Assembly: GCA_009835985.1 (NCBI GenBank)
Contig: VXWI01000011.1
Location: 11,483-75,482, forward strand
Source: Acidobacteriota bacterium
GTDB lineage: Bacteria > Acidobacteriota > Vicinamibacteria > Marinacidobacterales > Marinacidobacteraceae
Reading direction: 5' to 3'
DNA: 64,000 nucleotides
Shown: piece after piece, positions 21,584 through 60,144 of the stretch
How the letters are laid out: every line of letters starts with the position of its first letter
Position numbering within the stretch: position 1 is the first letter of the stretch
Position numbers and translations under genes: made by a program
The notes under the pieces: generated by a model
The model's input: only the letters and a program-made list of their open reading frames with translations
Databases searched by the model: none
What the model was told of the DNA's origin: nothing

Positions 21584-21585
21584 TC

Positions 21586-21658: not shown

Positions 21659-22582
21659 CTACTTCCCCAGTCCGTCCCAGATCTCGTTCATGCCGAGCTG
21701 GTAGGCGAGCTGGCGTAGCGAGTCCGTTGTCTTCAGGTCGAGGAGGATTCCTCTGGCGCGACGCTGTTCTTCGACGGCGGCGGCTTCCTGCCCCGGATAG
21801 TCGATCCGGGCGCGCCGCAGTTGAGATAGCCGCTCCACCATCCGGTTGCGGAAGCCGGCCCAGGGAGCGAACGCCCGGATCCGAAAGGCGAGGAACAACT
21901 GCCCGGTCCCACCGTGCACGGGTTCGGGCCGGGGCTCCGCGGTGAATTCCGCCGGGAGCGCGGCACCTCCAAGACTCACCAGGAACTCGAGCGCCAACGC
22001 GAGCGCCAGATCCCGGTCGCCGCCATCGGCGAAACGAAGATTCAGGACGAGCGGCGCGGCGGTTTCCGCGGTCGGAACCGCGATGCCGAGGGCCACCGGG
22101 TGGGCAGCGGCGGGAGGGGCGCCGGGCTCGGGGTGCTTCGGATCGCCGGCGATCGCGATGCCGGCCATCTGGTGGGGGAGCGCCAGAGCGGCCGCGTATC
22201 CCGCCGAGCCCAGACGGTTGCCGCGACGCACCGCAGTGCTGCCGACGCCGTGCCGGTTCGCGCCGCCGATGGCCTCGGTCATCGCCCGGCGGCCGACGGC
22301 GGGCCCCGGTCCGTTGTCGCCGTCGAGTACCGCCGTCCCGCCCGAGGAGGCCACCAGCTTCATCTCCGGCGCGGTTTTCACGTGCCGGGTGGAGAGCTTC
22401 CCGGCCAGATCGGGCAGCCAGGCGACCCCGTCGGCGTCGTCGCCCGCGAGACTGGCCGCCACCATCGCATCCGCCGTCTGCGACGCCAGTTCGGGCGCTA
22501 GACGAACGCGCTTCAGCGCTTCCCGGACGAAGAAATGGAGCTGCCCGTGCCGGACCCGGAGTGGCAGTCCTTCGCCGCTCAC
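21659..22582 (-). CDS. Ldh_2 family (malate/L-lactate/L-sulfolactate dehydrogenase-like) oxidoreductase
   Basis: This is the C-terminal part of the long ORF 21659..23698. It contains GDDADGVAWLPDLAGKL and RHGVGSTAVRRGNRLGSAGYAA...MAGIAIAGDPKHPEPGAPPAAAHPVALGIAVP, the conserved Ldh_2 core. A GTG start overlaps the NSS stop (GTGA). The start is uncertain. Confidence 0.55.
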   Translation of the reverse strand: MSGEGLPLRVRHGQLHFFVREALKRVRLAPELASQTADAMVAASLAGDDADGVAWLPDLAGKLSTRHVKTAPEMKLVASSGGTAVLDGDNGPGPAVGRRAMTEAIGGANRHGVGSTAVRRGNRLGSAGYAAALALPHQMAGIAIAGDPKHPEPGAPPAAAHPVALGIAVPTAETAAPLVLNLRFADGGDRDLALALALEFLVSLGGAALPAEFTAEPRPEPVHGGTGQLFLAFRIRAFAPWAGFRNRMVERLSQLRRARIDYPGQEAAAVEEQRRARGILLDLKTTDSLRQLAYQLGMNEIWDGLGK

Positions 22583-23880
22583 GAGAAGAGCTCCCGCAGC
22601 GTCCCGCTCCAGCCCCAGAACAGGACGACCACGATGGCCGCGGGGATGACCCAGCGGATCCAGAAGAGCCAGAGCCCGCCGAGCGGTTTCGCCGAGCCCC
22701 GGCTCGCCTCGGCGAGCGCCCGGCCCCGGGAGACGAAGAACCCGAGGCCGATCAGGGTGAGCGCCGAGCCGATGGGCTGCATGGTCGAGCCCCAGATCAG
22801 GTCGCTCCAGCCCAGGTAGTCGGAACTCACCATTGAAGGCAGCGCCAGCGGAATCTGGAGGGCGACCGCGACCCCCACCACCGTCCGCCGGCTCCAGCCG
22901 GTCCACGGGACCGCCGAGTTGACGATGACCTCGAGGGCGGCGAGGGCCGAAAGGAAGGCGGCCAGGAAGAGGGCCAGGAAGAAGACCGGGCCGAAGAACT
23001 CGCCGCCGGGCATCGCGGCGAAGACGCGGGGCAGGGTGAAGAAGACGAGCGGCGGGCCCGAGGCCGGCTCCACGCCGAGGGCGAAGGCCGCCGGCAGCAC
23101 CGCGAGCCCGCCCAGGATGGCCGCGCCCGAATCTCCGAAGATCGTGGTGCCGGACAAGCGGCGCAGGTTGGCGTTCGAGGGCAGGTAGCTGCCGTAGGCG
23201 AGGAAGAAGGTCCCGCCGAGCGAGAGGCTGAAGAACGCCTGCCCGAGGGCGGCCAGGAATGTCTCGGCGCTCACGCTTCCGAGATCGGGCCAGAGGAGGT
23301 AGCGAACGCCCTCGGAAGCGCCCGGCAGCGTGACCGACCGGACGGCGACGATGACCAGGCCGATCGCGACGAGCGGCATGGCGATTCGGGACAGGCGCTC
23401 GACGCCGCGCCGCACGCCGAATGCGGCCACCAGACCCATCGCCCCGAAGACGAGCACGGTGAGGCTGAGATTCAGCCCCGTCATGCCACCGAAGTTCCGG
23501 GCGTAGAACGCCTCGGGCTCCACCACCACGCCCCCGAGCGCGGCGTAGAAGAGGACCTGGGCCACCACCACCGTGTAGTACGAGCAGGCCATGAACACGG
23601 TCAGGAAGAGCAGGCCGCCGATGAAGCGGCCGCCGGGCATCCCGATGCTGGTGAAGGCGCCGCCGGGGCCCGCGCGGGTCAGCCGTCCCAGGCTCCACTC
23701 GGCGATCAGCGCCGGGGCGCCGAGCAGCAGGACGAAGGCGACGTAGATGGCGACGAAGGCCCCACCGCCGTACTGCCCCGCCATATAGGGGAAGCGCCAG
23801 ACGTTCGCGAGGCCGACCGCGACCCCGATAAGCGTCATCGCGGTCCCGAAGCGGGTCCCGAAGCGCTCGCTAACGCTCAT
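22579..23880 (-). CDS. Sodium-dependent transporter, neurotransmitter:sodium symporter (NSS/SNF) family
   Basis: 433-aa ORF with the NSS signature GLANVWRFPY and 11-12 hydrophobic helices. Confidence 0.85.
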   Translation of the reverse strand: MSVSERFGTRFGTAMTLIGVAVGLANVWRFPYMAGQYGGGAFVAIYVAFVLLLGAPALIAEWSLGRLTRAGPGGAFTSIGMPGGRFIGGLLFLTVFMACSYYTVVVAQVLFYAALGGVVVEPEAFYARNFGGMTGLNLSLTVLVFGAMGLVAAFGVRRGVERLSRIAMPLVAIGLVIVAVRSVTLPGASEGVRYLLWPDLGSVSAETFLAALGQAFFSLSLGGTFFLAYGSYLPSNANLRRLSGTTIFGDSGAAILGGLAVLPAAFALGVEPASGPPLVFFTLPRVFAAMPGGEFFGPVFFLALFLAAFLSALAALEVIVNSAVPWTGWSRRTVVGVAVALQIPLALPSMVSSDYLGWSDLIWGSTMQPIGSALTLIGLGFFVSRGRALAEASRGSAKPLGGLWLFWIRWVIPAAIVVVLFWGWSGTLRELFS

Positions 23881-23890
23881 CGGTCGTTCC

Positions 23891-24613
23891 CTACGGGAGA
23901 TAGTCGCGGGCGTTCAGGGCCTGCCCGGTGATACCTGCCGATTCCGGAGAGGCGAGGTGGACGAAGACCTCCGCGATCTCCTCGGGGGTCGGCAGCGTGA
24001 GCGGGTCTTCGGCCGGATAGGCGGCGGCCCGCATCGGGGTGCGGGTCGCTCCCGGATTGACGCTGTTCACCCGGACCCCGGTGTCCGCAAGTTCCGCGGC
24101 GAGCGTCTGCGTGAACCCCTCGAGACCGAACTTGGACACCGCGTAGGGCCCCCAGTTGGGCTTGCCGATGCGCCCGACGGTCGAGCTGACATTGATGATG
24201 GAGGCGGTCTCCCGCTCGAGGAAGGCTGGAAGGAGCGGCTTCGTCACGTAGAGGAGGCCCGCCGTGTTGATCCGCAGCGTCTCCGCCCAGACCTCCGGAT
24301 CCTGCTCGATGATGGGCGCCCGCACTCCCAGGACCGAGGCGTTGTTCACCAGCACCGAGAGGTCGGGGAAACGGCCGAGCGCGGCGCGCGTCATCGCTGC
24401 CGCGGAGCCCGGGTTCCCCACGTCCGACGCGGCGTACCCGGTCCGCCCCGGGTGAGCCGCTTCGAGTTCGCCGGCGGTCTCCCGGAGGCGCTCCTCGCCG
24501 CGCGCCGTGAGGAACACCCGCGCTCCTTCCCGCAGGAAGACCCTGGCGAGGCCGCGCCCGATCCCGGAAGAGGCGCCCGTGATGAGCGCCGCGACGCCGT
24601 CGAGCCGTCTCAC
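23891..24613 (-). CDS. Short-chain dehydrogenase/reductase (SDR)
   Basis: A GTG start gives VRRLDGVAALITGASSGIGRGLA (TGxxxGIG). The catalytic region is YAVSKFG-like (GPYAVSKFGLEG). The GTG overlaps the ccmD stop (GTGA). Confidence 0.75.
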   Translation of the reverse strand: MRRLDGVAALITGASSGIGRGLARVFLREGARVFLTARGEERLRETAGELEAAHPGRTGYAASDVGNPGSAAAMTRAALGRFPDLSVLVNNASVLGVRAPIIEQDPEVWAETLRINTAGLLYVTKPLLPAFLERETASIINVSSTVGRIGKPNWGPYAVSKFGLEGFTQTLAAELADTGVRVNSVNPGATRTPMRAAAYPAEDPLTLPTPEEIAEVFVHLASPESAGITGQALNARDYLP

Positions 24614-24753
24614 GGGTCGCTTGCTCGGGCTTCGTTGGCCGCGAGACGGGCGCGTTCGCGCCGGAGCCTGCGTTCGAGCAGCCCGAGCCGGACCACGTAC
24701 GCCCCGAGCAGCACGAAGAAGGCGGTGTAGCCCGCGGACAGCCAATCGTTCAT
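24610..24753 (-). CDS. ccmD: Heme exporter protein D (CcmD)-like small membrane protein
   Basis: The 47-aa MNDWLSAGYTAFFVLLGAYVVRLGLLERRLRRERARLAANEARASDP is the C-terminal end of the spurious ORF 24610..26358. Its ATG overlaps the ccmC stop (ATGA). Confidence 0.55.
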   Translation of the reverse strand: MNDWLSAGYTAFFVLLGAYVVRLGLLERRLRRERARLAANEARASDP

Positions 24754-25484
24754 GCCGCCTCCGCGAGCCGGCGCTGGCGAAGCGCTTCGACCGAACGGGC
24801 TTCCCGCTCCAGCTCCATCCGCCACTGGAAGAGCCAGACGAAAAGGAAGGTGAAGGCGGCGAGGCAGAGAAGCAGCGCGACCCACATGTCGGGGTGGAGC
24901 CCCGAGTCCGGCCCGCCCATGATCACGGGCGCCGGATGCTGGGTGCGCCACCAGCGGATCGAGAAGTAGACGATCGGGACGTCCGCGCCGCCCAAGATGC
25001 CGAGGACCGCTGCCAGGTTCGCCCGCCGGGTGGGGTCGTCCACGTAGCCCCGGAGCAGGAGGTAGCCGACGTAGATCAGCCAGAGAACGAAGGCCGTGGT
25101 CAGCCGCGCGTCCCAGGTCCACCAGATCCCCCACGCCGGCTTGGCCCAGATGATCCCCATCGCGAGTCCGGTGGTGGCGAAGAGCGTGCCGATCTCGGCG
25201 CTGGCGAGCGCCGCCATGTCGTAGCGCGGATTGCGGGTGCGAAGCCAGGCGATGCTTGCCCCGGCGACGAGCAGGAAAGCGGCGAAGGCGAGCCACCACG
25301 ACGCAATATGGAAGTAGAAGAGCCGCTGCAGGTCGCCCATCGTGAGCTCGGTGGGCGCATAGAAGAAGACCGCCCAGAGGGACACCACGAGGCCCAGGGC
25401 GGCCGGCGCCGCCCACCACCCGCCACGCTGCGGCGCGCCACCGTTCCTGACTCCCGGGCCGTTGCCGGGTGTTTCGCTGCTCAT
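24750..25484 (-). CDS. ccmC: Heme exporter protein C (CcmC), WWD-domain cytochrome c biogenesis protein
   Basis: 244-aa ORF with the Trp-rich WWD motif WAKPAWGIWWTWDARLTTAF and 6 TM helices. Confidence 0.8.
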   Translation of the reverse strand: MSSETPGNGPGVRNGGAPQRGGWWAAPAALGLVVSLWAVFFYAPTELTMGDLQRLFYFHIASWWLAFAAFLLVAGASIAWLRTRNPRYDMAALASAEIGTLFATTGLAMGIIWAKPAWGIWWTWDARLTTAFVLWLIYVGYLLLRGYVDDPTRRANLAAVLGILGGADVPIVYFSIRWWRTQHPAPVIMGGPDSGLHPDMWVALLLCLAAFTFLFVWLFQWRMELEREARSVEALRQRRLAEAA

Positions 25485-25530
25485 TCTCTCGGTTGGAATC
25501 GGCTCGGCCCGCCAGGACTATACTCGGCGA

Positions 25531-26370
25531 ATGCGTTCGTTTCCCTTCATTCCGCGCTCTGCCGTGCTGCTCCTGGCCGTGGCTTTGGTGGCCGCCGGGT
25601 CGGCTATCGCCCAGGAACTCCCCGGTTCCGCCGACACCGCCCGCGACCGGCTGAACACCTCCCCCCGCCACGGCGAGTGGGTCTCGGTGCCGGCGCCGGG
25701 CGGTGACGTCGTCGAGTCCTGGATCGTCTATCCCGAACGTTCGGACCCGGCCCCGGTGGTGGTGGTCATCCACGAGATCTTCGGGCTCACCGACTGGATT
25801 CGGGCGGTGGCGGACGAAATGGCCTCCCAGGGTTTCGTCGCGATCGCGCCCGACCTGTTGACCGGCAAGGGGCCGGACGGGGGACGGACCGATTCGGTGG
25901 ACAACGACGGGGCGCGGGCGCTGATCCGGGAACTCGACCGCGACGAGGTTCACACCCGGCTGAAGGCGGTGGCGGACTGGGCCACCGCGCTTCCCGCCGC
26001 CCGCGATTCCTACGGGGTGGTGGGCTTTTGCTGGGGCGGGCGCACGAGCTTCACCTTCGCCACCCACGATCCGGAGCTCGGCGCCGCGATCGTGTACTAC
26101 GGGACCTCCCCGGACAATGAGGCGCTCGCTTCCGTCGAGGCGCCCGTGCTCGGGCTCTACGGCGAGGACGACGCGCGCGTGAACGAGACGATTCCGCCGG
26201 CGCAGGAACGGATGGAGGAACTCGGGAAGCACTTCCAGGTCGAGATCTTCGACGGCGCGGGGCACGGGTTCCTGCGCGCCCAGGACGGCCGCGAGGGACG
26301 GAACCTGACGGCGTCCTCGCAGGCCTGGCCGATGACGGTCCGGTTCTTCCGGGAACATCTGGGTTCCTGA
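25531..26370 (+). CDS. Dienelactone hydrolase family protein, secreted
   Basis: An internal ATG gives the signal peptide MRSFPFIPRSAVLLLAVALVAAGSAIAQ. The alpha/beta hydrolase nucleophile motif is GVVGFCWGG, and the His region is GAGHGF. Confidence 0.8.
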   Translation: MRSFPFIPRSAVLLLAVALVAAGSAIAQELPGSADTARDRLNTSPRHGEWVSVPAPGGDVVESWIVYPERSDPAPVVVVIHEIFGLTDWIRAVADEMASQGFVAIAPDLLTGKGPDGGRTDSVDNDGARALIRELDRDEVHTRLKAVADWATALPAARDSYGVVGFCWGGRTSFTFATHDPELGAAIVYYGTSPDNEALASVEAPVLGLYGEDDARVNETIPPAQERMEELGKHFQVEIFDGAGHGFLRAQDGREGRNLTASSQAWPMTVRFFREHLGS

Positions 26371-26413
26371 AGGCTGTTGCCGCGCCCGCCCAGCGGACCA
26401 GCGTGAACGCCTC

Positions 26414-26510
26414 GGAGCGCCGGCCTCTGGCCGGCATCGCCCCAGTCCTCCCGGTGGGGGCGCGCAGCGAGGCGAAACCGCACTCCCGCGACGCGTTCTG
26501 ACGGCGCGTA
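26414..26510 (+). repeat. REP/MITE-like repeat copy (type B variant with CCAGTCCTCCCGGTGGGG insert)
   Basis: GGAGCGCCGGCCTCTGGCCGGCATCGCCCCAGTCCTCCCGGTGGGGGCGCGCAGCGAGGCGAAACCGCAC. Confidence 0.5.
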
Positions 26511-26520
26511 CGTAACCAGG

Positions 26521-26580
26521 GACGGCGCCGGCTTCCGGCCGGCATCGCCGGCCGCGGGGCGGCGAAACGCCCTTACGGGT
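26521..26580 (+). repeat. REP/MITE-like repeat copy (type A)
   Basis: GACGGCGCCGGCTTCCGGCCGGCATCGCCGGCCGCGGGGCGGCGAAACGCCCTTACGGG abuts the stop of the GWxTD-like gene. Confidence 0.6.
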
Positions 26581-28002
26581 TCACCGGACCAGCGTGAACG
26601 CCTTCCGCGTTTCGTAGACCTGCTCGCCGTAGAGGACCCGGATTCCGAGTTCGTAGCGCCCCGGCGCGAACTCGCCCAACTCGATCTCCGCATTGGCGGC
26701 AGCCTGCCGCGTACTGGTGGGGAGCGCCTCGGGACGGACGAAACCGGTATCCCGTCCCTCCCGGCTCAGGGTGTACTCGGCCACGATCTCCGGTAACTCC
26801 CCGTCGTCCACGCGTTCCCCCGGGTAGAAGAAATAGAACGCGCCGAGCGTCTCGTCCTGCCGGAACACCGCTGTCGAGCGGGGCTCGAAGTGGGTGCGCC
26901 CGAATTGGAAGGCGCGTCCGGGAACGCGGCCGCTGTACTCCTGCATGGTGGTGTCGCCGTAGAGGACCACTGAGGAGAACCCGGGCTCCGCTTCGGGAAA
27001 GGCCGGCGTCTCGACGTCCAGCCGGGCGGTGCCGAAGGCGTCCGACTGCTCGTCCACGACGCCGAGCAGCAGTCGGTGCCGGCCCGGGGGGAGCACCAGC
27101 GAGGCCTCGAAACGGACGGGGCCTTCCGCGGACCGGATCTCGGTGTGCGCCGTTTCCAGCCGGTAGGTCGCGGTTCCCGGGCTTTCCGCCTCGGCGGACG
27201 CGGTCTTGGCGAACAGGGACGCCGCCAACTGTCCGTCCGTTCCGGGGGCGAGCGCAGCGGCGGGAGTCTCGAAGAGCAGCGCGACGTAGGTTGCCCGGTC
27301 GTCCACCCGGAAGTAGGCCGGCGTGACCCGGAAGGAGAACCCGTCCCCGGCCGGACCGTCGCCGCTCAGTCCGGCGAGCACGCGCCGGGCTCGGTCCGAT
27401 CCTCCCGCCGGGAGGTTCGGGATCACGAGCCGCCCCTCCCCGTCGCGTTCGAAGCCGATCTCCGGCCGGGCGATGAGACGCCGCCTCATCTCTTCGAGGC
27501 TCTGGTCAACGGCGGTGCGGTTCTCGAGGAAGAGCTGGCCGTCCTCGTCCCGGTAGTAGAGCGCTTCCAGTGTGTCTGCAAGGCCGTTTTCCGGATCGGG
27601 AGGGAAGGCCCAGAGGAGTCCTTCCGGAGTCTCCTCGGTAGCGGGCTGGGGCAGGGCCTGCACCGGCATGCCGAGCAGCACGAAGACCCGGGCCCGGTCG
27701 TCCCCGCCGTAGCCGCCGTCCTCCGAGAAGTTCGAGTCGGCGAGCCGCACCCGCGCCAGATAGAGGTCGAGGGTTTCGTTCTGGGGACTGGACGGGTCCG
27801 GATCCCGGCGCATCCAGAAGAGACGCCGGAAGGCCTCCCGGTCGCCGTGCGTCATCGCCTCGATGGAGGCGCGGCGCTCCTCCTGGGTCATCAGGAAGGA
27901 CTCCAGCCAGCCCAGTTCGGTGTCCGTGGGCCGGTCCCGTCCCTGGGCGAGAGAGGCCGCCGGGACAGTCAACAGCAGGACGGCAAGCAGGACAATCGGC
28001 AC
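26581..28002 (-). CDS. Secreted GWxTD-domain-like protein
   Basis: 473-aa ORF with a signal peptide (MPIVLLAVLLLTVPAASLAQG). The N-terminal block FWMRRDPDPSSPQNETLDLYLARVRLADSNF...GGYGGDDRARVFVLLGMP resembles the GWxTD domain, with the GWxTD core degenerate. The family assignment comes from recall. Confidence 0.55.
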   Translation of the reverse strand: MPIVLLAVLLLTVPAASLAQGRDRPTDTELGWLESFLMTQEERRASIEAMTHGDREAFRRLFWMRRDPDPSSPQNETLDLYLARVRLADSNFSEDGGYGGDDRARVFVLLGMPVQALPQPATEETPEGLLWAFPPDPENGLADTLEALYYRDEDGQLFLENRTAVDQSLEEMRRRLIARPEIGFERDGEGRLVIPNLPAGGSDRARRVLAGLSGDGPAGDGFSFRVTPAYFRVDDRATYVALLFETPAAALAPGTDGQLAASLFAKTASAEAESPGTATYRLETAHTEIRSAEGPVRFEASLVLPPGRHRLLLGVVDEQSDAFGTARLDVETPAFPEAEPGFSSVVLYGDTTMQEYSGRVPGRAFQFGRTHFEPRSTAVFRQDETLGAFYFFYPGERVDDGELPEIVAEYTLSREGRDTGFVRPEALPTSTRQAAANAEIELGEFAPGRYELGIRVLYGEQVYETRKAFTLVR

Positions 28003-28045
28003 GACGGAAACCTAGCGCGAAGACGCGTCGGGACACCTCCGGCTC

Positions 28046-28474
28046 GTGATCGTCCCGGACGTCAATCTGCTGGTTTACACCTGCAGCGAGGACGCGTTCT
28101 TCCACGACCGGGCAAAGGCGTGGTGGGGAGCGTCGCTCTCCGGGACGGAAGCGGTGGGACTCGCCTGGAGCGTCATGCCTGGCTTTGCGCGGGTGGTGTC
28201 GAATCGCCGGATGCTGACCGTCCCGGTTGGGGTCGAGCCGGCGCTATACCGCTGCCGGAAGTGGCTCACCCAACCGCAGGTCCACGTCCTGTTGCCCGGG
28301 CCAGATCGCCTGGATGTCCTGGCTGACCTGCTCCGGGGACCCACAGCTGTTTCGGCGCTGGCGCCAGAAGCCCACCTCGCGGCTCTCGCGATCGAACATC
28401 AGGCAGAGTTGAACTCAACCGATTCGGATTCCGCTCGTTTCTCCGGATTGCGCTGGCGAAACCCGGTCGCGTGA
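28046..28474 (+). CDS. vapC: PIN-domain ribonuclease toxin (VapC family)
   Basis: 142-aa ORF with a GTG start. The conserved acidic residues are MIVPDVNLLVY (Asp5) and the C-terminal AELNSTDSDSARFSGLRWRNP. Confidence 0.75.
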   Translation: MIVPDVNLLVYTCSEDAFFHDRAKAWWGASLSGTEAVGLAWSVMPGFARVVSNRRMLTVPVGVEPALYRCRKWLTQPQVHVLLPGPDRLDVLADLLRGPTAVSALAPEAHLAALAIEHQAELNSTDSDSARFSGLRWRNPVA

Positions 28475-28961
28475 CGGACTGCGTACCCCCCTCGGGGCCA
28501 CCGGTCGTGAGGTCCGTCGATGGGTGCGCGGGGCGCTCCAGGAAGTCGAAGTCCTCCTGGCAGCACCAGCAGGGTCCCGGGAGGTGCGAGGTGATGTTGC
28601 AGGTGAAGCAGAAGTAATAGGGCTCGACCGCTTTCCCGTCCTGGATCGTGTAGAGGCGGATGATCTTGCCGAGCCCGTCCTCCTCCCAGAGCGCAACCTC
28701 CAGCGGATGCCTGTGCACCCGCTCGTCGGTGAGGATTTCGCCCCGCAGGTCCGTGGGGTCCAGCCGGTGGATCGTGCCGTCCGGTGATTCGATCCCGAGC
28801 TGCTCGCCGAAGCTGCAGTCCGCCGCCGGTCCCGGTTCCCCGTCCTTGAGGCAGACCGCGCGGCCGGAGACGATGATCTCGCGTCCGTTCCAGGCGGCTC
28901 TCGTGACGGCGGGGGCGGCCATCAGGAAAAGCGTCGCACGGAGCGCATCGCGTCGGTGCAT
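28266..28961 (-). CDS. Hypothetical Cys-rich secreted protein, 3' end uncertain
   Basis: An internal ATG in ORF 28266..29045 gives MHRRDALRATLFLMAAPAVTRAAW followed by a region with high GC3 and protein-like composition (KIIRLYTIQDGKAVEPYYFCFTCNITSHLPGPCWCCQEDFDF). The last ~70 codons overlap vapC antisense and look low-complexity. Confidence 0.4.
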   Translation of the reverse strand: MHRRDALRATLFLMAAPAVTRAAWNGREIIVSGRAVCLKDGEPGPAADCSFGEQLGIESPDGTIHRLDPTDLRGEILTDERVHRHPLEVALWEEDGLGKIIRLYTIQDGKAVEPYYFCFTCNITSHLPGPCWCCQEDFDFLERPAHPSTDLTTGGPEGGTQSVTRPGFASAIRRNERNPNRLSSTLPDVRSREPRGGLLAPAPKQLWVPGAGQPGHPGDLARATGRGPAVG

Positions 28962-29045
28962 GGGACTGTGGAGATTAGCAGGGGACCCTGGGTCGTGCTG
29001 CCCCCGGACCTGCTGGACGGACGAACCGGAGTGAAGGAGTCGCAT

Positions 29046-29318
29046 TTGACGGGGGACCCCCGGAGGCTAATTAATGGGTCTCCCAATTCGGTCTCGCCTG
29101 AACTACAGGCAGACCCAAAGGAGGACTACTGCGGTATGACCCAGCGCAATCCGTCGGTTCGACGGCGCGATCTGGTTGTTGGGTTTGCCGCCGTCCGCCG
29201 CAAGGCGGGTTCTCCGCTGCGTTCATGGGCAGATCCAGTCCCTCCGGTTGACCGGTTGCGCGACTGCATCTGTCCGTAGCGCCTCCCCACAGGCGCGTTC
29301 ACCCAAAAGGAGACGGGT
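29046..29318 (+). promoter_or_regulatory. Long 5' leader/promoter region of the TonB-dependent receptor operon
   Basis: 273-nt intergenic segment of locally lower GC (GGCTAATTAATGGGTCTCCCAATTCGG). Two strong SD sequences are present: AAAGGAGG before the small ORF and AAGGAGA before the receptor ATG. Confidence 0.35.
29127..29279 (+). CDS. Possible small ORF (50 aa) in the 5' leader of the TonB-dependent receptor
   Basis: An ATG lies 11 nt downstream of a strong Shine-Dalgarno AAAGGAGG. It encodes MTQRNPSVRRRDLVVGFAAVRRKAGSPLRSWADPVPPVDRLRDCICP. No homology is recognised. Confidence 0.2.
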   Translation, partial: YCGMTQRNPSVRRRDLVVGFAAVRRKAGSPLRSWADPVPPVDRLRDCICP

Positions 29319-32171
29319 ATGAATTTCGGCAACTGCACCGGGACGAGGTCCCTGGCGATGCTGTTCGCAGCGCTGCTCGCGGGTATGGCCGCCACGGCGG
29401 CCGCCCAGGAAGCCGGCGTGTACGGCACGGTGAGCGACTCCACCGGCGATGCCCTGCCCGGGGTGACCATCACGGTCACCAACGCGGAGACCGGGCTCCA
29501 GCGAATCGCCACCTCGGGAGGCGACGGGCAGTACCAGGTGCCCTCGCTGCCGGTCGGCACCTACTCGGTGGCGGCGAGCCTCCAGGGGTTCCAGACGCTC
29601 ACCAACGAGGGCCTGCGGCTCCAGGTGGCGCAGCAGGTGACGCTCAACATCTCGCTGGAACTGGCCGGAGTCGAGGAGGCGGTCACCGTCACCGCGACGG
29701 CTCCCCTGATCGAGTCGCGCCAGGCGGATTTCTCCACCATCATCACCGAGGAGCAGGTCGAGGTCCTGCCCATGCAGGGTCGGAAGTGGCTTGATCTCGC
29801 GACCCTGAGCCCCGCCACCAGCCAGGACGCGATCCGCGGCGTCTTCTACAACAACGTCAACATCGGCGCCGGGGTCACCTTCTACTCGAACGGCTTCTAC
29901 GTGGACGGGGTCAGCAACAACTGGCAGCAGCAGGGCGAGCCGCGGCAGGATTTCCCCCAGGAAGGCATCGCCGAGTTCAAGGTCCAGGCGTTCAACGCCA
30001 GCGCCGAGTTCGGTTTCGCACAGGGTGGCTACCTGAACGTGGTCACCAAGAGCGGCACGAACCGGATCAGCGGCAGCGCCTTCGAGTTCTTCCGCACGAA
30101 GGCGCTCAACTCCAAGACGGTGCTCCAGGACGAGAAGCCCGACTTCTCCCGCCACCAGTTCGGCGGGTCGCTCGGGGGCCCGATCGTCGAGGACAAGGCG
30201 CACTTCTACGTCTCCGCCGAGTACACCGACGAATCCTCCTTCTTCACCGTCAACACCGGTGGGGCGTTTCCGTCCGAGGAGGGCACCTTCGAGAAGCCGG
30301 ACTGGAACTTCATGGGGTTCGCGCGCCTCGACGCAGCCATAGGCGACGACCATCGCCTGTTCGTGCGGTATGCGCACCACAACAACGAGCTGACCCACCG
30401 CGGCTCCGGCGGCATCCGGGCGGCTAGCAGCGGCTTCAGCTTCGGGGCCCCACGGCACTCACTGGTGCTGGGCGAGACCTGGTTCCTGAGCCCCAACACG
30501 TTCAACGACTTCCGCGTCCAGGTGGCGCACGCGACCTACATCGGCTGGCCTCCCGGACACCAGAAGTGGAGCGCCTCCGGCGAGTTCCCCGCCGAGCGCG
30601 TGGATGTCGGGCCGCTCATCAACCGGCCCAGCCTTCGCACCGGCTCCCAGTCGGCGTTCCTGGGGCCGGAACTCCACATCCAGGTCAAGAACGACATCTC
30701 CCACTACGTTGGGGGCCACGAGCTGAAGTTCGGTGTGGACCTCACGTTCATCGACTGGGAACCGGACAACGTTGGCGTCGCCGAAGAGTGGTGGTTCTCC
30801 TCCGACGCGCCGTACGACCCGAACGACCCGTCCACCCACCCCGACCGGTTCCGGCAGCGGCTTCTGCCCCGCTATGACGATTTCGAGAACACGGAGCACT
30901 CCTTCTACATCAGCGACACCTGGATCGTGAATCCCCGGCTCACGCTGAACCTCGGTCTGCGGTACGACCTGCAGCAGGGCGTCTGGAACGAGAACCTGCT
31001 CGAGGAAACGGTGCCCGAGATCCTGGTCCGGGACCGGGTCGTGCGCCCGGCCGGCCGGCTCGATCCGTCCCTCTTCCCGTTCTACGACAACAGCACCCGC
31101 GGGGACAACGACAACTTCGGCCCCCGGCTGGGACTCGTGTGGGACCCGACTGGCGACGGCCGGCAGTCCGTGCGGGCCGCCTGGGGCGTCTTCTACAACC
31201 GCTACCGCGCCAACGGCGCCCCGCGCGCCGAGCGGAATCCGGAGGACCTGCTGGTCGTGATCCAAAACCCCAGCTATCCCGATCCCTATGAGGGGCAGGA
31301 TCCCTTCGAGGTTGCCCGCTCCCAGCGGAACTATTCCATCCAGGGCAACGAGAACCGGACGCCCTACACCAACCAGTACAGCCTGGGCTACACCGTCCAG
31401 CTCGGAGACGACCTGAGCGTGAGCGTGGACGGCATCGCGGCGGACGGCTTCAACCAGCACACCCAGATCGACTTCAACTACCCGTTGACGCCGGGAGGGG
31501 ACCGGCCCTACGCCCCCATCGGCCGCGTCACCGCGGGTATGACGGACGGCGAAATGAAGTACCGCGCACTGTCAGCGAGAGTGACGAAGCGGCTCGCGAA
31601 CAACTGGCAGATGCTCGGTTCCTACACGCTCGCCGACGTGCAGGCCGACAACGAGCGCTTTCCCGCGGACCACTTCAACCGCGGCGCCGACTACGGGCAC
31701 GTGCCCGCCGACCGGCGTCACCGGCTGACGGTCAGCGGTCTCGCGATGCTCCCCGGAGGCATCAACCTGAGCGGCATCGTTCGGTACCAGAGCGCCCTGC
31801 CGTTCGACGTCACGGCGGGGAGCGACCTGAACGGGGACGGCATCGGCGGCGACCGGCCGCCGGGGATCAATCTCCGGGACGGCTGCCGGGACCTCGACCT
31901 GAACGCCGCGAACGCCTACCGGGCCGCGAACGGACTGTCGACCGTCTCCTCGGTCGAGTGTCCCGCCTACGCCACCGTGGACGTGCTGGCGGCGAAGGAG
32001 TTCGGTTTCGGCGACAACGCCTACGTCGAGGCCATCTTCCAGGTGTTCAACCTGCTGAACCGCGCCAACTACTTCCCTCCGAACGGGAACCTCCGTTCCG
32101 GAGGCTTCGGGATGTCGACGCAGGTTTCCGAGGCCCGGCAGATCGAGCTGGCGCTCCGGATCCGGTTCTAG
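29319..32171 (+). CDS. TonB-dependent outer-membrane receptor with N-terminal carboxypeptidase-regulatory-like domain
   Basis: 950-aa ORF with a signal peptide. The CarboxypepD_reg block is YGTVSDSTGDALPGVTITVTNAETGLQRIATSGGDGQYQVPSLPVGTYSV. A plug region follows. The C-terminal beta-barrel ends in ...LALRIRF. Confidence 0.85.
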   Translation: MNFGNCTGTRSLAMLFAALLAGMAATAAAQEAGVYGTVSDSTGDALPGVTITVTNAETGLQRIATSGGDGQYQVPSLPVGTYSVAASLQGFQTLTNEGLRLQVAQQVTLNISLELAGVEEAVTVTATAPLIESRQADFSTIITEEQVEVLPMQGRKWLDLATLSPATSQDAIRGVFYNNVNIGAGVTFYSNGFYVDGVSNNWQQQGEPRQDFPQEGIAEFKVQAFNASAEFGFAQGGYLNVVTKSGTNRISGSAFEFFRTKALNSKTVLQDEKPDFSRHQFGGSLGGPIVEDKAHFYVSAEYTDESSFFTVNTGGAFPSEEGTFEKPDWNFMGFARLDAAIGDDHRLFVRYAHHNNELTHRGSGGIRAASSGFSFGAPRHSLVLGETWFLSPNTFNDFRVQVAHATYIGWPPGHQKWSASGEFPAERVDVGPLINRPSLRTGSQSAFLGPELHIQVKNDISHYVGGHELKFGVDLTFIDWEPDNVGVAEEWWFSSDAPYDPNDPSTHPDRFRQRLLPRYDDFENTEHSFYISDTWIVNPRLTLNLGLRYDLQQGVWNENLLEETVPEILVRDRVVRPAGRLDPSLFPFYDNSTRGDNDNFGPRLGLVWDPTGDGRQSVRAAWGVFYNRYRANGAPRAERNPEDLLVVIQNPSYPDPYEGQDPFEVARSQRNYSIQGNENRTPYTNQYSLGYTVQLGDDLSVSVDGIAADGFNQHTQIDFNYPLTPGGDRPYAPIGRVTAGMTDGEMKYRALSARVTKRLANNWQMLGSYTLADVQADNERFPADHFNRGADYGHVPADRRHRLTVSGLAMLPGGINLSGIVRYQSALPFDVTAGSDLNGDGIGGDRPPGINLRDGCRDLDLNAANAYRAANGLSTVSSVECPAYATVDVLAAKEFGFGDNAYVEAIFQVFNLLNRANYFPPNGNLRSGGFGMSTQVSEARQIELALRIRF

Positions 32172-42916: not shown

Positions 42917-43498
42917 ATGGCTTCCAGACTCGACCGGTACTTCCAGCACACCAGGACCTGGCGGACGGAGAAGCAGCGGCTTCGGGCAATCCTGCTGGAC
43001 TTCCCGCTCACCGAAGAACTGAAGTGGCGGCAGCCCTGCTACGTGTTTGAGGGCGCGAACGTGGTCATCGTCGGCGGATTCAAGCAGACGGTGGACCTTG
43101 GCTTCTTCAAGGGCGCGTTGCTCGACAATCCCCATGGTCTGCTCGTTCCGCCGGGGCCGCACTCACAGGCGTCCCGTCAACTGCGGTTCACGAGCGTCGA
43201 GGAGATCGAGGAGAAGGAACCGATCATCAGGGCGACCATCGAAAACGCCATCGAGGTGGAACGGGCCGGCCTGAGGGTGGACTTCAAACAGAAGCACGAG
43301 TTGGAGCTGGTGGCGGAACTCCTCGCAAAGATGGAGGCGGCCCCCGAGTTCAAGGCCGCCTTCGAGGCGCTGACCCCGGGGCGGCAGCGGGGATACAACC
43401 TCTTCTTCGGCGCGGCGAAGCAATCGAAGACGCGGGCGGCCCGGATCGAGAAGCACGCGGCGCGCATCTTTGAGGGCAAGGGCATGCACGACCGGTAG
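42917..43498 (+). CDS. YdeI/OmpD-associated family (DUF1801-like) protein
   Basis: 193-aa ORF. The C-terminal AAFEALTPGRQRGYNLFFGAAKQSKTRAARIEK block is characteristic of the YdeI family. The assignment comes from recall. Confidence 0.55.
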   Translation: MASRLDRYFQHTRTWRTEKQRLRAILLDFPLTEELKWRQPCYVFEGANVVIVGGFKQTVDLGFFKGALLDNPHGLLVPPGPHSQASRQLRFTSVEEIEEKEPIIRATIENAIEVERAGLRVDFKQKHELELVAELLAKMEAAPEFKAAFEALTPGRQRGYNLFFGAAKQSKTRAARIEKHAARIFEGKGMHDR

Positions 43499-43509: not shown

Positions 43510-43577
43510 GTCTTGCCCGAATGCGCGTTTTCGCCGCCCTTCGGGCGTCGATGCCGGCCGGAGGCCGGCGCTCCAAG
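43510..43577 (-). repeat. REP/MITE-like repeat copy (type A, reverse orientation)
   Basis: The reverse complement reads GGAGCGCCGGCCTCCGGCCGGCATCGACGCCCGAAGGGCGGCGAAAACGCGCATTCGGGC. It sits between the convergent YdeI-like and ERG4/24 genes. Confidence 0.6.
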
Positions 43578-43589
43578 CCTGGTGGTCCC

Positions 43590-44672
43590 TCAGTAAACGC
43601 GTGGAACGATGCGCCATGGCACCGCCGCGCGGTACTGCTCCCAGAGCGGACCGTACTTCGCGGCGCAGCGCCGGTCATCGTCGCGCTCCCGCGGGACGAG
43701 CAGCGCCAGGTAATAGAGCGGGTAGAGCCACGGGCCGAGCATTCCCGGCCGTCCCAGGGCGAGCGCCAGACCCACGGCCATCAGGATCTCGCCCAGATAG
43801 TTCACATGGCGTGAGAGGCCCCAGAAGCCGCTGACCAGCAACCGGCGTTCGCCATCCCCGAGGGCGCGCGGCCGGAGTGCCAGGAACGCCCGTTCGGGGT
43901 CGCGCTTGAAGTGGAACTTCTGGAGGTTCGCGCCGCGCGAGAGCGTCCAGCCGGCGAAGAAGAGGGTGGCGGAGGCGACCAGAAGCCACGCTGGCGCGTG
44001 CGGGTCGGGGAGGTCCGCCACCGACCAGAGGCCCACCGCATAGAAGTACGGATACCAGGCGAGGCATCCCCAGACCAGCTTGAACCCCAGGCGCTCGGCG
44101 AAGAGGTCGTAGGTGTAGAGATGGACGCGCTCGAAGACGAGGTAGTCGCACACGAACCAGGTGAAGAGCGCGACGTGGAGCGCGACGCCCGGGGAGGGGG
44201 CATCCGGGTGGGTGAGGACGTGGTGTGCCGCGAACGAGAGCAGGTTCAGCTCCAGCAGGACCGCGCCCGCCAGGTAGAGAAACATCTTGGCGTCGGCGCG
44301 GCCGCCGAACGGCTGCGGGTTGACCCGGCGGCCGAGATAGAGGTCCCGGAGCAGGTTGCCCCCGGCCCCGGGCGCGGTCAGCACCACCGCGGCGGAGACC
44401 AGGAGCCCGAGGGTCATGGCGCCCGCCGCGCCCGGCCAGCGGTGCTGCCAGAGCCAGTCCCACGGCATGACGCCGCTCCAGCCCGCGGCGAACCAGGCCC
44501 CGAGGGTGACGATGAACACCAGCGGGCCGTTGAGGCGATAGCGCAGTCGTTTGCCGCGCTTCCCGTCACGCACGTAACCCGCGACCCGGCGCGCCGGCAG
44601 CACGAGGTGCAGCGCGAAGATTCCGGCGAACACGGCCCAGGGCGCGAAGAACCCGATCAGCAGACCGGTCAT
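43590..44672 (-). CDS. ERG4/ERG24 family sterol-reductase homolog (membrane NADPH-dependent C=C reductase)
   Basis: 360-aa polytopic ORF. Both family signatures are present: GNLLRDLYLGRRVNPQ (sig 1-like) and LLVPRERDDDRRCAAKYGPLWEQY (sig 2), plus GFWGLSRHVNYLGE. Confidence 0.75.
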   Translation of the reverse strand: MTGLLIGFFAPWAVFAGIFALHLVLPARRVAGYVRDGKRGKRLRYRLNGPLVFIVTLGAWFAAGWSGVMPWDWLWQHRWPGAAGAMTLGLLVSAAVVLTAPGAGGNLLRDLYLGRRVNPQPFGGRADAKMFLYLAGAVLLELNLLSFAAHHVLTHPDAPSPGVALHVALFTWFVCDYLVFERVHLYTYDLFAERLGFKLVWGCLAWYPYFYAVGLWSVADLPDPHAPAWLLVASATLFFAGWTLSRGANLQKFHFKRDPERAFLALRPRALGDGERRLLVSGFWGLSRHVNYLGEILMAVGLALALGRPGMLGPWLYPLYYLALLVPRERDDDRRCAAKYGPLWEQYRAAVPWRIVPRVY

Positions 44673-45463
44673 CCCAGGTGCTTCGTGCTCTTCGCGATGA
44701 GCCGGATCGCGGTCCGGCGGGGCAGGAATCGCCCGACGAGCTGGTGTGCGAACCGGTTGATCCTTCCGGGAACGATGCGCGGGCCCGTACCCAGGGCGGC
44801 GAGGGTCTGCCGAACCGCCTCGTCCGCCGACAGCATGCCCGGGACCTCGCGCCCGAACCGCGCCTGGTAGCCCGGGGTGGGCACCGCGCCCGAGACGCAG
44901 GCGGCAACGTCGATACCGTGCGGGGTCAGCTCGTACCAGAGACCCTCGGCGAAGATCGTGTTGAACGCCTTGCTGGCCGCGTAAACCGCAATGTGGGGCG
45001 AGCCCTGCAGTCCGGACAGCGAGGACATGAGCACCACCGCCCCCCGGCCACGCTTCTTCATGGCCGGCGCCAGCGCCCGCACGAGGCGCAGCGGTCCGCG
45101 CACGTTGACGTCCACCGCCGCCTAGATCGCGTCCTCGTCATGGCCGAGGAACGGGCCCATCGGCACGAACGCCGCGTTGTAGACGAGCACCCCGAGGTCG
45201 AGGCCGCGGGTGGCTTCCTCCAGGCCTCCGGGGAAGCCGGGGTCGGAGAGATCGAGTTCGAGGCAGCGCACCTCGACCCCGTGGTCCGCGGCGAGCCGCC
45301 CCCCGATCTCCTCCAGGATCCGGCCGCGCCGCGCCACCAGAACCACGTTCATGCCCCGCGCGGCGAGCGCCGCCGCGAACGCCTCCCCGAGGCCCTCCGA
45401 GGCGCCCGCCACCACGGCCCACTTCCCGTAGCGGTCCGGGAAGGAGTCCATGGGCGGCCGCAC
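44669..45463 (-). pseudogene. SDR-family oxidoreductase interrupted by a single in-frame TAG (two track ORFs 45122..45463 and 44669..45115 in the same frame)
   Basis: The N-terminal half is WAVVAGASEGLGEAFA...LVYNAAFVP. The frame then continues ...GHDEDAI-TAG-AAVDVNVRGPLRLVRALAPAM...AVYAASKAF. It overlaps the ERG4/ERG24 start (ATGA). Confidence 0.6.
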
Positions 45464-45464
45464 C

Positions 45465-46067
45465 TCAGCGGCTGAGCAGGATTCGCAGTCCCAGCGCGCC
45501 GAGGACGGCCGCCGCGCCGCGGTCGATCCAGGTCTTGGCCCGCAGGTAGCGTCCGGCGACCGCCTCGGTGTTCAGGCAGAAGGCGAGGGCCGTATAGAAC
45601 GAGAGTTCGATCAGGAGGTGGTTCACGGCGATCACCACGCTGTTCACGGCGCCCAGGCCGCCCGGGAAGATCGCGATAAGGACCGCCGCCGCGAAGAGGA
45701 CCGCTTTCGGATTGAAGACGTTGATGAAGAGGCCCTGGCGGAAGGCGCGGTGCGCCGGCTCCGGCAGCGCGCCCGCGGGAGCCGAGGCCCCCCGCCACAT
45801 GCGGTAGGCGACGTAGAGGAGATAGATCGCCCCGGCGACGCGGGCGCCCGTGTACGCCGCGGGGAACACCTCGAAGACCGCCGCGAAACCGACGAGCGCC
45901 ATCAGCGTCCAGGTCGCCGCCATCAGGCCGAGGCCGCAGCCGACGGCGATTCCGGCCCGCCGTCCGCCGCTCAGGTTGGTCTGGACGGCGACCAGGAGCG
46001 CCGGCCCGGGGCTGAACATCGCCACCAGCAGGGTGACGTTGAAGGCGGCGAGCTGCGCCAGCGTCAT
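45465..46067 (-). CDS. LysE/RhtB family amino-acid exporter
   Basis: 200-aa ORF with 6 TM helices and the N-terminal motif LLVAMFSPGPALL. Confidence 0.85.
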   Translation of the reverse strand: MTLAQLAAFNVTLLVAMFSPGPALLVAVQTNLSGGRRAGIAVGCGLGLMAATWTLMALVGFAAVFEVFPAAYTGARVAGAIYLLYVAYRMWRGASAPAGALPEPAHRAFRQGLFINVFNPKAVLFAAAVLIAIFPGGLGAVNSVVIAVNHLLIELSFYTALAFCLNTEAVAGRYLRAKTWIDRGAAAVLGALGLRILLSR

Positions 46068-58496: not shown

Positions 58497-58963
58497 CAGC
58501 CGTTCTCCTCGCCGCGGCCCGCTCCACCGGCGAGCAGGTGGATCGCCATCAGCAGCCCCGATACCGGCGCCGCGGCATAGACGAGCGCGACGGGCAGGTT
58601 CAGCGCCGCGGAGCGCTCGGCCAGGGTGAGATCCATGAGGGCGATTCCGGTGCCGACGAGCAGGAGCGACAACGCCAGCACGACCGCCCAGGCGGTGCGC
58701 TCCACGGCGCGCCGCACCGGCGGCGCCAGTTTCTTCGTCACCTGGTCGAACCCGAAGTGGGCCCGGTGCTCCACCGCGAGCGAGGCCCCGAGCAGCGACA
58801 CCCAGATGAAGGCGAAGCGCGAGAGCTCCTCGCTCCAGGGGTTCGGGGTGGCGAAGAGGTAGCGCATCAGCACCTGGAGGAGGACCACGGCGCACACCGC
58901 GATGACCAGCGCCCCCGCGGCGCAGGTCTCGGCCGCGACGAGGACCCGGTTGAGGCGCTTCAT
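58496..58963 (-). CDS. dctQ: TRAP transporter small permease (DctQ)
   Basis: 155-aa ORF with 4 TM helices. Its start overlaps the dctP stop (ATGA). Confidence 0.7.
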   Translation of the reverse strand: MKRLNRVLVAAETCAAGALVIAVCAVVLLQVLMRYLFATPNPWSEELSRFAFIWVSLLGASLAVEHRAHFGFDQVTKKLAPPVRRAVERTAWAVVLALSLLLVGTGIALMDLTLAERSAALNLPVALVYAAAPVSGLLMAIHLLAGGAGRGEENG

Positions 58964-60144
58964 TGGTCGCGCCGTTCCCGGCTGGATGGGGGCGATGAGG
59001 GCGATTGCGCGGGTGCGTTTCGCGTCGCTCCGCTCCGCGATGCCGGCCGGGAGGCCGGCGCTCCGACCTCGGCTGGGGTGCGCTCCGCCGCTTCCACCAG
59101 TCTGGCGATCAGCGCTTCGCCGTCCGGCAGTCGGGCGGCCAGCTCGTCCCAGATGCGTGGCCGGACCGCAGGGGTGAACGGCGCGAGGTCCGGGCGCGAG
59201 ATCTCCACGTCGTTTGTACGCATCTCGGCGATCGCCTCCGCCTCCATCCGGCGGGCGACCTCGGACTGGTAGGCGAGCGCGTCCGCCGCCGAGCGGTCAA
59301 CGAACTCCCGGATGTCCGGGGGCAGCGACCGATAGAACGGCTCGTTCACGAGCAGCGTGATCGGGTTGTAGGTGATGGAGGTGAAGCTGTAGAACTTCGC
59401 CACCTCGTAAAGCCGGCTGCTCACGAACCCGACGGCGTTCGCCTCCCCGCCGTCGATCACCCCCTGCTGGAGCGCCGAGTAGACCTCGCCGTAGTTCATC
59501 GGGGTCGCCTGGACGCCCAGCGCCGAATAGGCCGCGAGATAGGTCGCGTTCTGGAGGACCCGCAGCTTGAGGCCGGCGAGGTCCGGGGGCGCCTCGACCG
59601 GTCCGCGGCGGTTGTAGACGTGGCGGAACCCGTAGTCGAGGAACCCGAGTGCGCGGACCCCGGTGCGCTCGAGGAGGAGGTCCCGCCACCAGTCCCCGGC
59701 GGGGCCCTGCATCACCCGGAGCCCGTGGTCCCGCGTCTCGAAGAGGTACGGGAGATCGAACACCTGGGTCTCGGGCACCCAGCCGGAGAGCACGGGGGTG
59801 CCGGTGATCGCCACCTGCACCGCGCCGGCCTGGATCTGCTCGAAGGCCACCCGCTCGCCGCCGAGCTGTCCCGACGGATAGATGACGACCCGGAACCGCC
59901 CGCCGGTGCGCTCGTGCATGAGGTCCCGGAAACGCTCCGCCATGAGGTGGTACTCCGAGGTGGTCGAGAGGACGTGGGAGAACCGGACGGTCCACGTGGA
60001 TGGGTCCGGCGCGGGGCCCGTGCACGACAGCGTGAGGAGCGCCGCCAGCTGGACTGTGGTGAGGCCGGGCCACGGAGGTGCTTCTCGCTCCGCCACAGGC
60101 CGTCGGCCCACTGCCCCAGCTGCCGGTCGCTCGGATTCTTTCAT
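58960..60144 (-). CDS. dctP: TRAP transporter substrate-binding protein (DctP); start uncertain; the last ~40 codons are encoded by an inserted repeat element
   Basis: The DctP core is RFSHVLSTTSEYHLMAERF...GTPVLSGWVPETQVFDLPYLF...LKLRV. The C-terminal tail ERTPAEVGAPASRPASRSGATRNAPAQSPSSPPSSRERRDQ coincides with the repeat copy at 59000..59072. Confidence 0.7.
   Translation of the reverse strand: MKESERPAAGAVGRRPVAEREAPPWPGLTTVQLAALLTLSCTGPAPDPSTWTVRFSHVLSTTSEYHLMAERFRDLMHERTGGRFRVVIYPSGQLGGERVAFEQIQAGAVQVAITGTPVLSGWVPETQVFDLPYLFETRDHGLRVMQGPAGDWWRDLLLERTGVRALGFLDYGFRHVYNRRGPVEAPPDLAGLKLRVLQNATYLAAYSALGVQATPMNYGEVYSALQQGVIDGGEANAVGFVSSRLYEVAKFYSFTSITYNPITLLVNEPFYRSLPPDIREFVDRSAADALAYQSEVARRMEAEAIAEMRTNDVEISRPDLAPFTPAVRPRIWDELAARLPDGEALIARLVEAAERTPAEVGAPASRPASRSGATRNAPAQSPSSPPSSRERRDQ
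59000..59072 (-). repeat. REP/MITE-like repeat copy (type A, reverse orientation) inside the dctP 3' end
   Basis: The reverse complement reads GGAGCGCCGGCCTCCCGGCCGGCATCGCGGAGCGGAGCGACGCGAAACGCACCCGCGCAATCGCC. Confidence 0.6.

Follow-up and report, generated by a model that had tools for sequence, protein, structure and literature searches.

A family of two-hairpin repeats scattered between genes of Acidobacteria, with probable affinity to REP elements

Repeat copies in the window

The window, i.e. the whole stretch of 64,000 nucleotides of an acidobacterial contig analysed here, contains five intact copies of a repeat and a sixth, decayed one (Table 1). A preliminary description had placed a family of palindromic repeats at six positions, and all six hold the sequence it described. 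The covariance model R1, run over the window with filters off, gave five matches of 44-70 bits, the next best reaching 16 bits. A four-copy nhmmer profile also gave five matches in the window (E 3e-14 to 3e-8), the remainder being no better than E 0.3. The 26-nt core GGAGCGCCGGCCTCCGGCCGGCATCG, searched with up to 3 mismatches allowed, was found three times in the window with at most 1 mismatch each, for an expectation of 0.00 and none in dinucleotide shuffles. The partial copy reported at the left of the window is present too, decayed and chimeric and missed by R1.

Table 1. Positions of the repeat copies, of the direct repeats flanking two clusters and of the mini-module (window coordinates unless a related locus is named)
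Feature	Position	Strand	Remarks
Copy A	21578-21636	+	short form; R1 69.3 bits
Copy B	26406-26510	+	long form, ~99 nt from head at 26414; R1 44-53 bits
Copy C	26512-26574	+	immediately after B, same orientation; R1 52.1 bits
Copy D	43522-43582	-	own locus of the preliminary description; R1 69.9 bits
Copy E	59011-59072	-	R1 67 bits; dctP-dctQ junction; hairpin 2 with tandem G.A/A.G internal loop
Copy F	6394-6448	+	decayed chimera; below R1 detection
19-nt direct repeat CGGACCAGCGTGAACGCCT, left copy	26394-26412	+	abuts head of B
19-nt direct repeat CGGACCAGCGTGAACGCCT, right copy	26585-26603	+	within 3' end of gene 26581-28002 (-)
15-nt direct repeats	L041 6155-6169, 6269-6283		around a 99-nt copy
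Mini-module	26442-26459		in copy B
Mini-module	6405-6420		in copy F
Mini-module	L099 4563-4578
Mini-module	L024 6668-6683
Mini-module	L039 430-445
Mini-module	L071 1328-1343
Mini-module	L019 7847-7862
Mini-module	L125		P0128 tail

The genomic context was established with a GC3-based gene caller and Pfam checks. Convergent genes flank copies A, B+C, D and F, and four of the five intact copies are intergenic; the earlier placing between convergent genes does not apply to copy E, which occupies the dctP-dctQ junction and is read through by the dctP open reading frame (ORF). Copy A, composed of the head GGAGC, hairpin 1 (21591-21607), hairpin 2 (CGCGGCC-AAC-GGCCGCG) and the tail CGAAAC, begins immediately past the stop codon of a fadB-like gene (19523-21583), the next gene being convergent. 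The hairpin 2 of copy B carries a nested 18-nt module, CCAGTCCTCCCGGTGGGG, and is followed by a 3' extension ending CTGACGGCGCG, and copy C has a changed head (GGACGGCGCC) and a U.G pair within hairpin 1. This is the only direct doublet in the window, where no inverted dimer is found. Copy D (head, hairpin 1, hairpin 2 CGCCC-GAA-GGGCG and tail CGAAAAC) takes up most of the 91-nt gap between the convergent genes 42917-43498 (+) and 43590-44672 (-). Copy F, in a 57-nt gap between convergent genes, consists of the head GGAGCGCCGG, the mini-module CCAGTCCTCCCGGTGG within the former hairpin 1, and then GGCCTTCCGACCGGGATCG.

Shortly past the end of the window, the contig has two more copies, which brings the count to 7-8 in ~83 kb; a genome would have several hundred copies if this density holds elsewhere. 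Since the G+C content of the window is ~70%, hairpin folding energies alone are unremarkable (z-scores of -1 to -2.3), and the case for a repeat family is one of repetition and covariation, not of energy.

In the window, a short-chain dehydrogenase gene (44669-45571, -) is split into ORFs of 148 and 109 aa, whereas in a second sample with the same flanking proteins (L108, L109) it is a single ORF of 260 aa; the split results from a frameshift, from a polymorphic stop or from an error of assembly.

Anatomy of the repeat unit

Alignment A1, of 54 copies that all differ and come from the window or from related genomes, gives a constant order of the unit, namely head GGAGC, hairpin 1 (GCCGGCC-TCC-GGCCGGC), linker AU, hairpin 2 and tail CGAAAC. 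The preliminary description had a GC-rich spacer followed by another sequence block; the spacer is the second hairpin, the conserved tail is CGAAAC, and the GGCG preceding the tail is the 3' arm of that hairpin. Hairpin 1 has a perfect stem of 7 bp and a loop of 3-4 nt, is paired in 100% of cells in the 54 copies with three covarying pairs, and folds as DNA and as RNA. It is near-invariant, and the changes that do occur are two-sided (GGCC/GGCC to GGTC/GACC; GCC/GGC to AGCC/GGCT). Hairpin 2, which opens with CG and closes with CG, is represented by 39 distinct sequences, every one of which folds. For the whole structure, 96.1% of the pair cells are standard and two-sided changes are seen in 8 of the 15 pairs, values that none of 500 shuffles reached; when the partner was shifted by 1-3 columns, pairing fell to 23-37%.

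The unit is also asymmetric between strands. Tetraloops are of the G..A type in 13 cases out of 15 and never T..C, and triloops of the G.A type in 11 out of 24 and never T.C (0/24). One class of hairpin 2, copy E included, has a conserved tandem G.A/A.G internal loop, and tandem G.A fills 37 cells of the large alignment against 2 for C.T. Together, the loop bias and the tandem G.A excess indicate that one strand is the folded strand. The ratio of G.U to A.C, used as a test for the RNA strand, was 6:1 in the seed set and 16:12 in the large alignment, and does not discriminate. Two further pairings, head GGAG to loop CUCC and 5' flank to tail, were rejected as inconsistent across subfamilies.

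Long forms measure ~99 nt from the head, extending ~45 nt beyond CGAAAC to end near GA(C/T)GGCGC (copy B; L041). In the large alignment, subfamilies are distinguished by the heads GGAA, GGAC, GGAT and GGTG (the window copies have GGAG, except C with GGAC), the stems GGTC/GACC or GGC/GCC, the loops TCCA or TTCA and the linkers ACCG or ACAG. The ends of the monomer are unlike (GGAGC... and ...CGAAAC), and it has two internal palindromes and no terminal inverted repeats.

A mini-module of 16-18 nt, CCAGTYCTCCCGGTGG(GG), was found only within repeat copies and in either orientation, sitting in the hairpin 2 loop (B, L099, L024) or in hairpin 1 (F, L039). At dctP-dctQ, it is present in some filled alleles and absent from others. 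It looks like a second, smaller insertion aimed at the hairpins of the repeat.

Distribution, arrangement and change at orthologous sites

The family, proposed from copies in the window, is repeated well beyond it. A degenerate-core scan of species-representative genomes returned at least 106 loci and, among the matches listed, R1 recognised 130 copies in the first 100 sources and 15 in the remainder. All 49 loci with at least 40 bits, among the matches listed, are titled Acidobacteria, Acidobacteriota or Vicinamibacteria, and similarity between the window and those loci is confined to the repeat (90-96% over ~50 nt). At least 12 Acidobacteriota genomes at species level, the window's own and 11 others, share the 26-nt head. 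The scan matches in Azoarcus, Streptomyces and other scattered genomes are the bare palindrome and have no R1 score. Viral contigs gave only seven pattern matches, the best of 39 bits, and with the repeat hardly present there a phage feature was rejected. Rfam at gathering threshold gave no match in the whole window. To our knowledge, this family, whose copies are dispersed among the genes of sponge- and soil-type Acidobacteria, has not been described before.

Related repeats were seen in two further genomes. Only in an uncultured Acidobacteriota (CAWCLU01, L094) do relatives have a GTAG head (GTAGCGCCGGGCTTCAGCCCGGCA); these repeats, at 579-657 and 2648-2706 of the locus (GTGTAGCGCCGGGCTTCAGCCCGGCACTG...), are near-identical to the Smal2 REP, so canonical GTAG REPs seem to exist in Acidobacteriota too. 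In the Planctomycetota MAG CANIXE01 (L052 4124-4367; L007 1080-1198), a related head GGGAGCGCCGGCC(T/G)CC(A/T)GGCCGGCATCGGT forms a tandem array of 84-85-nt period and an inverted pair, with neither the second hairpin nor CGAAAC.

Over all loci, the repeat-bearing regions comprise 28 co-directional, 19 convergent and 3 divergent ones, the co-directional regions being all-sense in 16 cases, all-antisense in 8 and of both kinds in 4. In four loci (L063, L058, L006, L022), antisense copies between co-directional genes score 69-75 bits, and Pfam confirms seven of the eight genes flanking them. In many copies the head lies 0-13 nt past a same-strand stop codon, and some copies lie just 5' of start codons. 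The regions with both orientations, at least 15 in number, are all arranged plus-then-minus, i.e. tail-to-tail with the heads outward, and these dimers fold as one long hairpin with 26-bp inverted termini, their halves having unlike second hairpins and in many cases belonging to different subtypes. The period of tandem arrays is 85-121 nt. Monomers and direct doublets make up the majority of copies and all five intact ones of the window.

No U tract of an intrinsic terminator follows the hairpins on either strand, the tail being CGAAAC(G/C)C, and a terminator consensus scan called no repeat copy. In a consensus scan of window positions 18000-30000, no sigma-70-like promoter was found, and since all ten weak terminator-like sites fall inside called coding regions, canonical intrinsic terminators appear to be absent from gene ends there. 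Copy orientation showed no relation to the GC skew measured locally, to GC3 skew or to the net gene strand of a locus, a noisy measure.

Some copies flank small cassettes with toxin-antitoxin-like pairs (L088 5493-6780, L001 6841-7946, L102 3100-3810): in one pair a VapB-like RHH protein accompanies one of 223 aa, which matches no family and shows a PD-(D/E)xK-like EVK motif, and others are MNT nucleotidyltransferase/HEPN pairs.

Insertion polymorphism was found, and copy number varies at orthologous sites. One orthologous gene is preceded by 1, 3 and 4 copies of different subtypes in three genomes whose flanks are 88-92% identical, and a relative has four copies upstream of dctP against one in its orthologue. 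Between two genomes that are 95.7% identical and share an array, one orthologous copy has changed from GTC/GAC to GTA/TAC with pairing kept.

A clean series of filled and empty sites exists at dctP-dctQ. Copy E, which is sense to both genes, forms an in-frame, translated tail (GAPASRPASRSGATRN) on the dctP ORF, and this ORF stops at the ATGA that begins dctQ (58960-58963). Among the 120 best DctP homologues (74-91% identity), seven besides that of the window have an in-frame C-terminal repeat tail and at least 72 have none. The empty site is an ATGA stop/start overlap, and filled sites carry ~100-120 nt inserted just upstream of the ATGA. One lineage has the mini-module lodged within the copy without loss of the reading frame, and in a further relative the copies lie on the other side of the ATGA. 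The DctP ORF of the window (58960-60144, -; 394 aa) exceeds most homologues by ~40-45 aa, since its frame continues across copy E as far as the ATGA of dctQ. Eight alleles that differ in length all keep the frame through the repeat open, suggesting that translational coupling is under selection.

Flanking direct repeats were found at 2 of 94 clusters, of 15 and 19 nt, the other 92 being without target duplication; at four dimers examined, none was seen. Those of 19 nt bracket the B+C doublet and duplicate the 3' end of the gene at 26581-28002 (-), and those of 15 nt contain the ATGA overlap of the flanking genes. Each bracketing repeat duplicates a gene end and leaves both flanking genes intact.

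Origin of the repeats and relation to known systems

The copies are dispersed and structured; they are strand-specific, form tail-to-tail clusters, vary in number and are polymorphic for presence. REP, BIME and REPIN elements are high-copy, extragenic and hairpin-forming, occur in both orientations and in clusters, and vary at orthologous sites (PMC2817692, PMC3733652), and it is from these properties that we read the family as a REP-like repeat with a variant head. We consider it somewhat probable that this is a REP/BIME-like, non-autonomous extragenic repeat family, specific to an Acidobacteriota clade (Vicinamibacteria and relatives) and probably mobilised by a RAYT/TIRYT-type HUH Y1 enzyme. 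The invariant head and hairpin (GGAGC-GCCGGCC-TCC-GGCCGGC-AUCG) would be the recognition site of a sequence-specific enzyme acting in trans, and the 26-nt head, frozen across species, argues for a sequence-reading partner protein. Of the second hairpin, only the ability to pair would be required; CGAAAC comes after it and, in long forms, another ~45 nt. The repeat would fold and be copied as single-stranded DNA of one strand; the strand-specific fold is kept in antisense copies, an argument that it matters in single-stranded DNA and not only in mRNA. As with GTAG-headed REPs, the mobiliser would most likely be an HUH Y1 transposase of RAYT/TIRYT type with a single gene elsewhere in the genome, and the absence of target duplication at 92 of 94 clusters, which is expected of Y1 enzymes, supports the REP-like reading. 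Copies may survive at the least harmful places, i.e. past stop codons, between convergent genes and at operon junctions, where the two GC-rich hairpins, like those of E. coli REPs, would probably also serve transcripts as a 3' barrier or stabiliser.

Several observations stand against this reading. E. coli TnpA-REP requires both GTAG and a mismatch in the stem (PMC3333891), whereas the head here is GGAG or GGAA in place of GT(A/G)G and the stem of hairpin 1 is perfect over 7 bp. The perfect direct repeats of 15 and 19 nt at two clusters are not the product of a peel-and-paste Y1 enzyme. Orientation relative to local GC skew, a noisy measure, lacks the lagging-strand bias expected of Y1 enzymes, and the 2:1 sense bias and the few divergent regions are also compatible with a role at the RNA level. 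Moreover, the cognate RAYT that had been proposed was not found: neither it nor any Y1 transposase was detected in the window, in the rest of the contig or in the related loci (0.87 Mb in pieces, a small share of the genomes), either by tblastn with the RayT of E. coli as query or by searching all six-frame ORFs with an HMM built from 60 enterobacterial RayT sequences, probes that are enterobacterial only and hence distant. The best RayT HMM matches were discarded as non-coding frames or a sigma factor. Pfam and NCBIfam revealed no transposase among the ORFs between repeat pairs, and one distant YhbQ probe found no YhbQ-like GIY-YIG nuclease ORF in the same sequence. The mobilising enzyme is thus one that we infer.

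The repeat could instead be an RNA element selected by the host and not spread by a transposase, its hairpins serving as a terminator that lacks a U tract, as a barrier to 3' exonucleases or as the site of an RNA-binding protein. The many heads placed 0-13 nt past a same-strand stop codon, the predominance of convergent over divergent regions (19 against 3) and of all-sense over all-antisense co-directional ones (16 against 8), the GNRA-type tetraloops with tandem G.A, and the lack of canonical terminators at nearby gene ends are all in agreement with it. So is the position of copy E between a binding-protein gene and permease genes, the classic REP position known from malE-malF. However, one third of the co-directional regions have only antisense copies, intact and high-scoring, some copies lie just 5' of start codons, neither strand has a U tract, and wobble asymmetry is absent (G.U 16 against A.C 12). 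Furthermore, termination does not need an invariant 26-nt sequence, and copy number changes fast at orthologous sites. We therefore regard this explanation as rather unlikely for the family, though a terminator or stabiliser role at the RNA level may well be a secondary function.

We also hold it unlikely, but worth stating, that the repeat is not a RAYT client at all, that the head and hairpin 1 are the handle of an undescribed enzyme or RNA-binding protein common to Vicinamibacteria-like Acidobacteria, that hairpin 2 with CGAAAC is a functional module, e.g. the main route by which mRNA 3' ends are formed or protected in these genomes poor in U tracts, and that the 15-19-nt duplications trace an insertion process unlike Y1 and DDE. 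A REP-like repeat could also be paired with a partner other than Y1, either another sequence-specific enzyme of single-stranded DNA, such as the GIY-YIG nuclease Ssn of the NTS/CGTC-type hairpin repeats, or an undescribed one. A head that is not GTAG, the failure to find a RAYT in the window, the rest of the contig and 0.87 Mb of related loci, and the existence of a second enzyme family that pairs with hairpin repeats (PMC11893778) are in its favour. Nevertheless, the one distant probe found no YhbQ-like GIY-YIG ORF, the repeat is without the CGTC tag, and its head and stem are nearest to GTAG REPs (PMC2817692), which together make such a partner quite improbable.

The preliminary description offered a REP or a MITE family, of which the REP part is retained and the MITE part is not, because monomers lack terminal inverted repeats and target duplication is missing at 92 of 94 clusters. 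A classical MITE, moved by a DDE transposase acting on terminal inverted repeats, would make the tail-to-tail dimer the true element and the monomers its halves. The dimers do have 26-bp inverted termini, and two clusters are flanked by direct repeats of 15 and 19 nt, but these differ in length, most copies (all five in the window among them) are monomers or direct doublets, dimer halves are unlike in hairpin 2 and often in subtype, and no transposase ORF lies between any pair; we judge this origin very improbable. A small self-cleaving ribozyme (HDV- or hammerhead-like, as a hairpin with CGAAAC after it might suggest) or another structured ncRNA gene has a next to negligible probability, for despite strong covariation and a weak Rfam match of copy D to HDV-F-prausnitzii (RF02682; 21.2 bits, E ~0.03, for a gathering score of 44), the alignment deletes P2, P3 and L3 (24 model positions reduced to 2 nt) and thus leaves no active site, other copies match no ribozyme family at E up to 10, and antisense and arrayed copies are unlike a gene.

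Other identities were discarded on sequence grounds. In Rfam E-value scans of copies B/C and D, the only matches were the HDV-like one, of 21 bits, and naRNA4, of 17 bits; the HDV-like alignment is without the nested double pseudoknot, its catalytic core being deleted, and the CUGAUGA of the hammerhead is absent. An integron attC would have an RYYYAAC/GTTRRRY pair, which is not there, and although the tail GAAAC recalls a CRISPR repeat, the 'spacers' of the arrays are themselves repeated.

Read as REP-like, the family extends REP-type repeats, which together with their domesticated transposases are well studied in gamma-proteobacteria and hardly elsewhere, to a poorly known and mostly uncultured Acidobacteriota clade. 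It offers a natural experiment in which hairpin 1 is frozen across at least 12 species and hairpin 2 varies provided that it pairs, and a frozen hairpin beside a freely varying one separates reading by a partner enzyme from mere folding. In practice, the repeats break assemblies and lengthen annotated ORFs, as in the DctP tail, and they are a possible marker of the clade in metagenomes.

Among known systems, the NTS/SRM repeats, which have hundreds of copies, act as single-stranded DNA and are paired with the Ssn GIY-YIG nuclease, are likewise oriented hairpins with non-palindromic conserved flanks, clustered around genes (PMC11893778). Their tag and sequence differ from those of the acidobacterial repeat, and one distant probe found no Ssn-like gene in the sequence searched here; if the partner is not a RAYT, the family would represent a third repeat-enzyme pairing after RAYT and Ssn. 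For a unit in two parts, the double palindromic TIRs of TIRtrons are a precedent; in them a degenerate GTAG unit is joined to an unrelated stem-loop, and they reach hundreds of copies in P. putida and P. fluorescens (PMC3733652). A distinct TIRYT group exists in Acidobacteria, one member of which has a repeat family (PMC3733652), but those species are Acidobacteriia and not Vicinamibacteria, and no TIRYT gene was found in the sequence searched here. With the REPINs of Pseudomonas fluorescens, the tail-to-tail dimers share inverted units with outer heads, a spacer, one long hairpin and compensatory pairing (PMC3116915, PMC3337134), whereas the acidobacterial halves are usually of different subtypes and monomers and direct arrays are as common as dimers.

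The closest parallels are with REP/BIME elements and their RAYT (TnpA-REP). REPs are extragenic and number over 100 per genome, and the acidobacterial repeat, largely extragenic in the window, probably reaches such numbers too; both lie mostly at gene 3' ends, both form monomers, dimers, arrays and heterologous inverted pairs, and both vary in copy number at a locus and occasionally enter ORF ends (PMC2817692, PMC3333891, PMC3733652). GTAG REPs, for which Acidobacteriota were not listed in 2013 (PMC3733652), differ in having GT(A/G)G where the acidobacterial head is GGAG or GGAA, in lacking the added sequence-variable second hairpin and CGAAAC tail, and in their RAYT, none having been found beside the acidobacterial repeat in the 0.87 Mb searched; in E. 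coli REPs, the stem has the mismatch needed by TnpA-REP, whereas the acidobacterial stem 1 is perfect (PMC3333891). With the Smal2 REP of Stenotrophomonas maltophilia (GGTAGCGCCGGGCCATGCCCGGCG; Nunvar et al. 2010, PMC2817692), the nearest single example, the repeat has in common a head G(G/T)A(G/A) placed directly 5' of CGCCGG..CCGGC.
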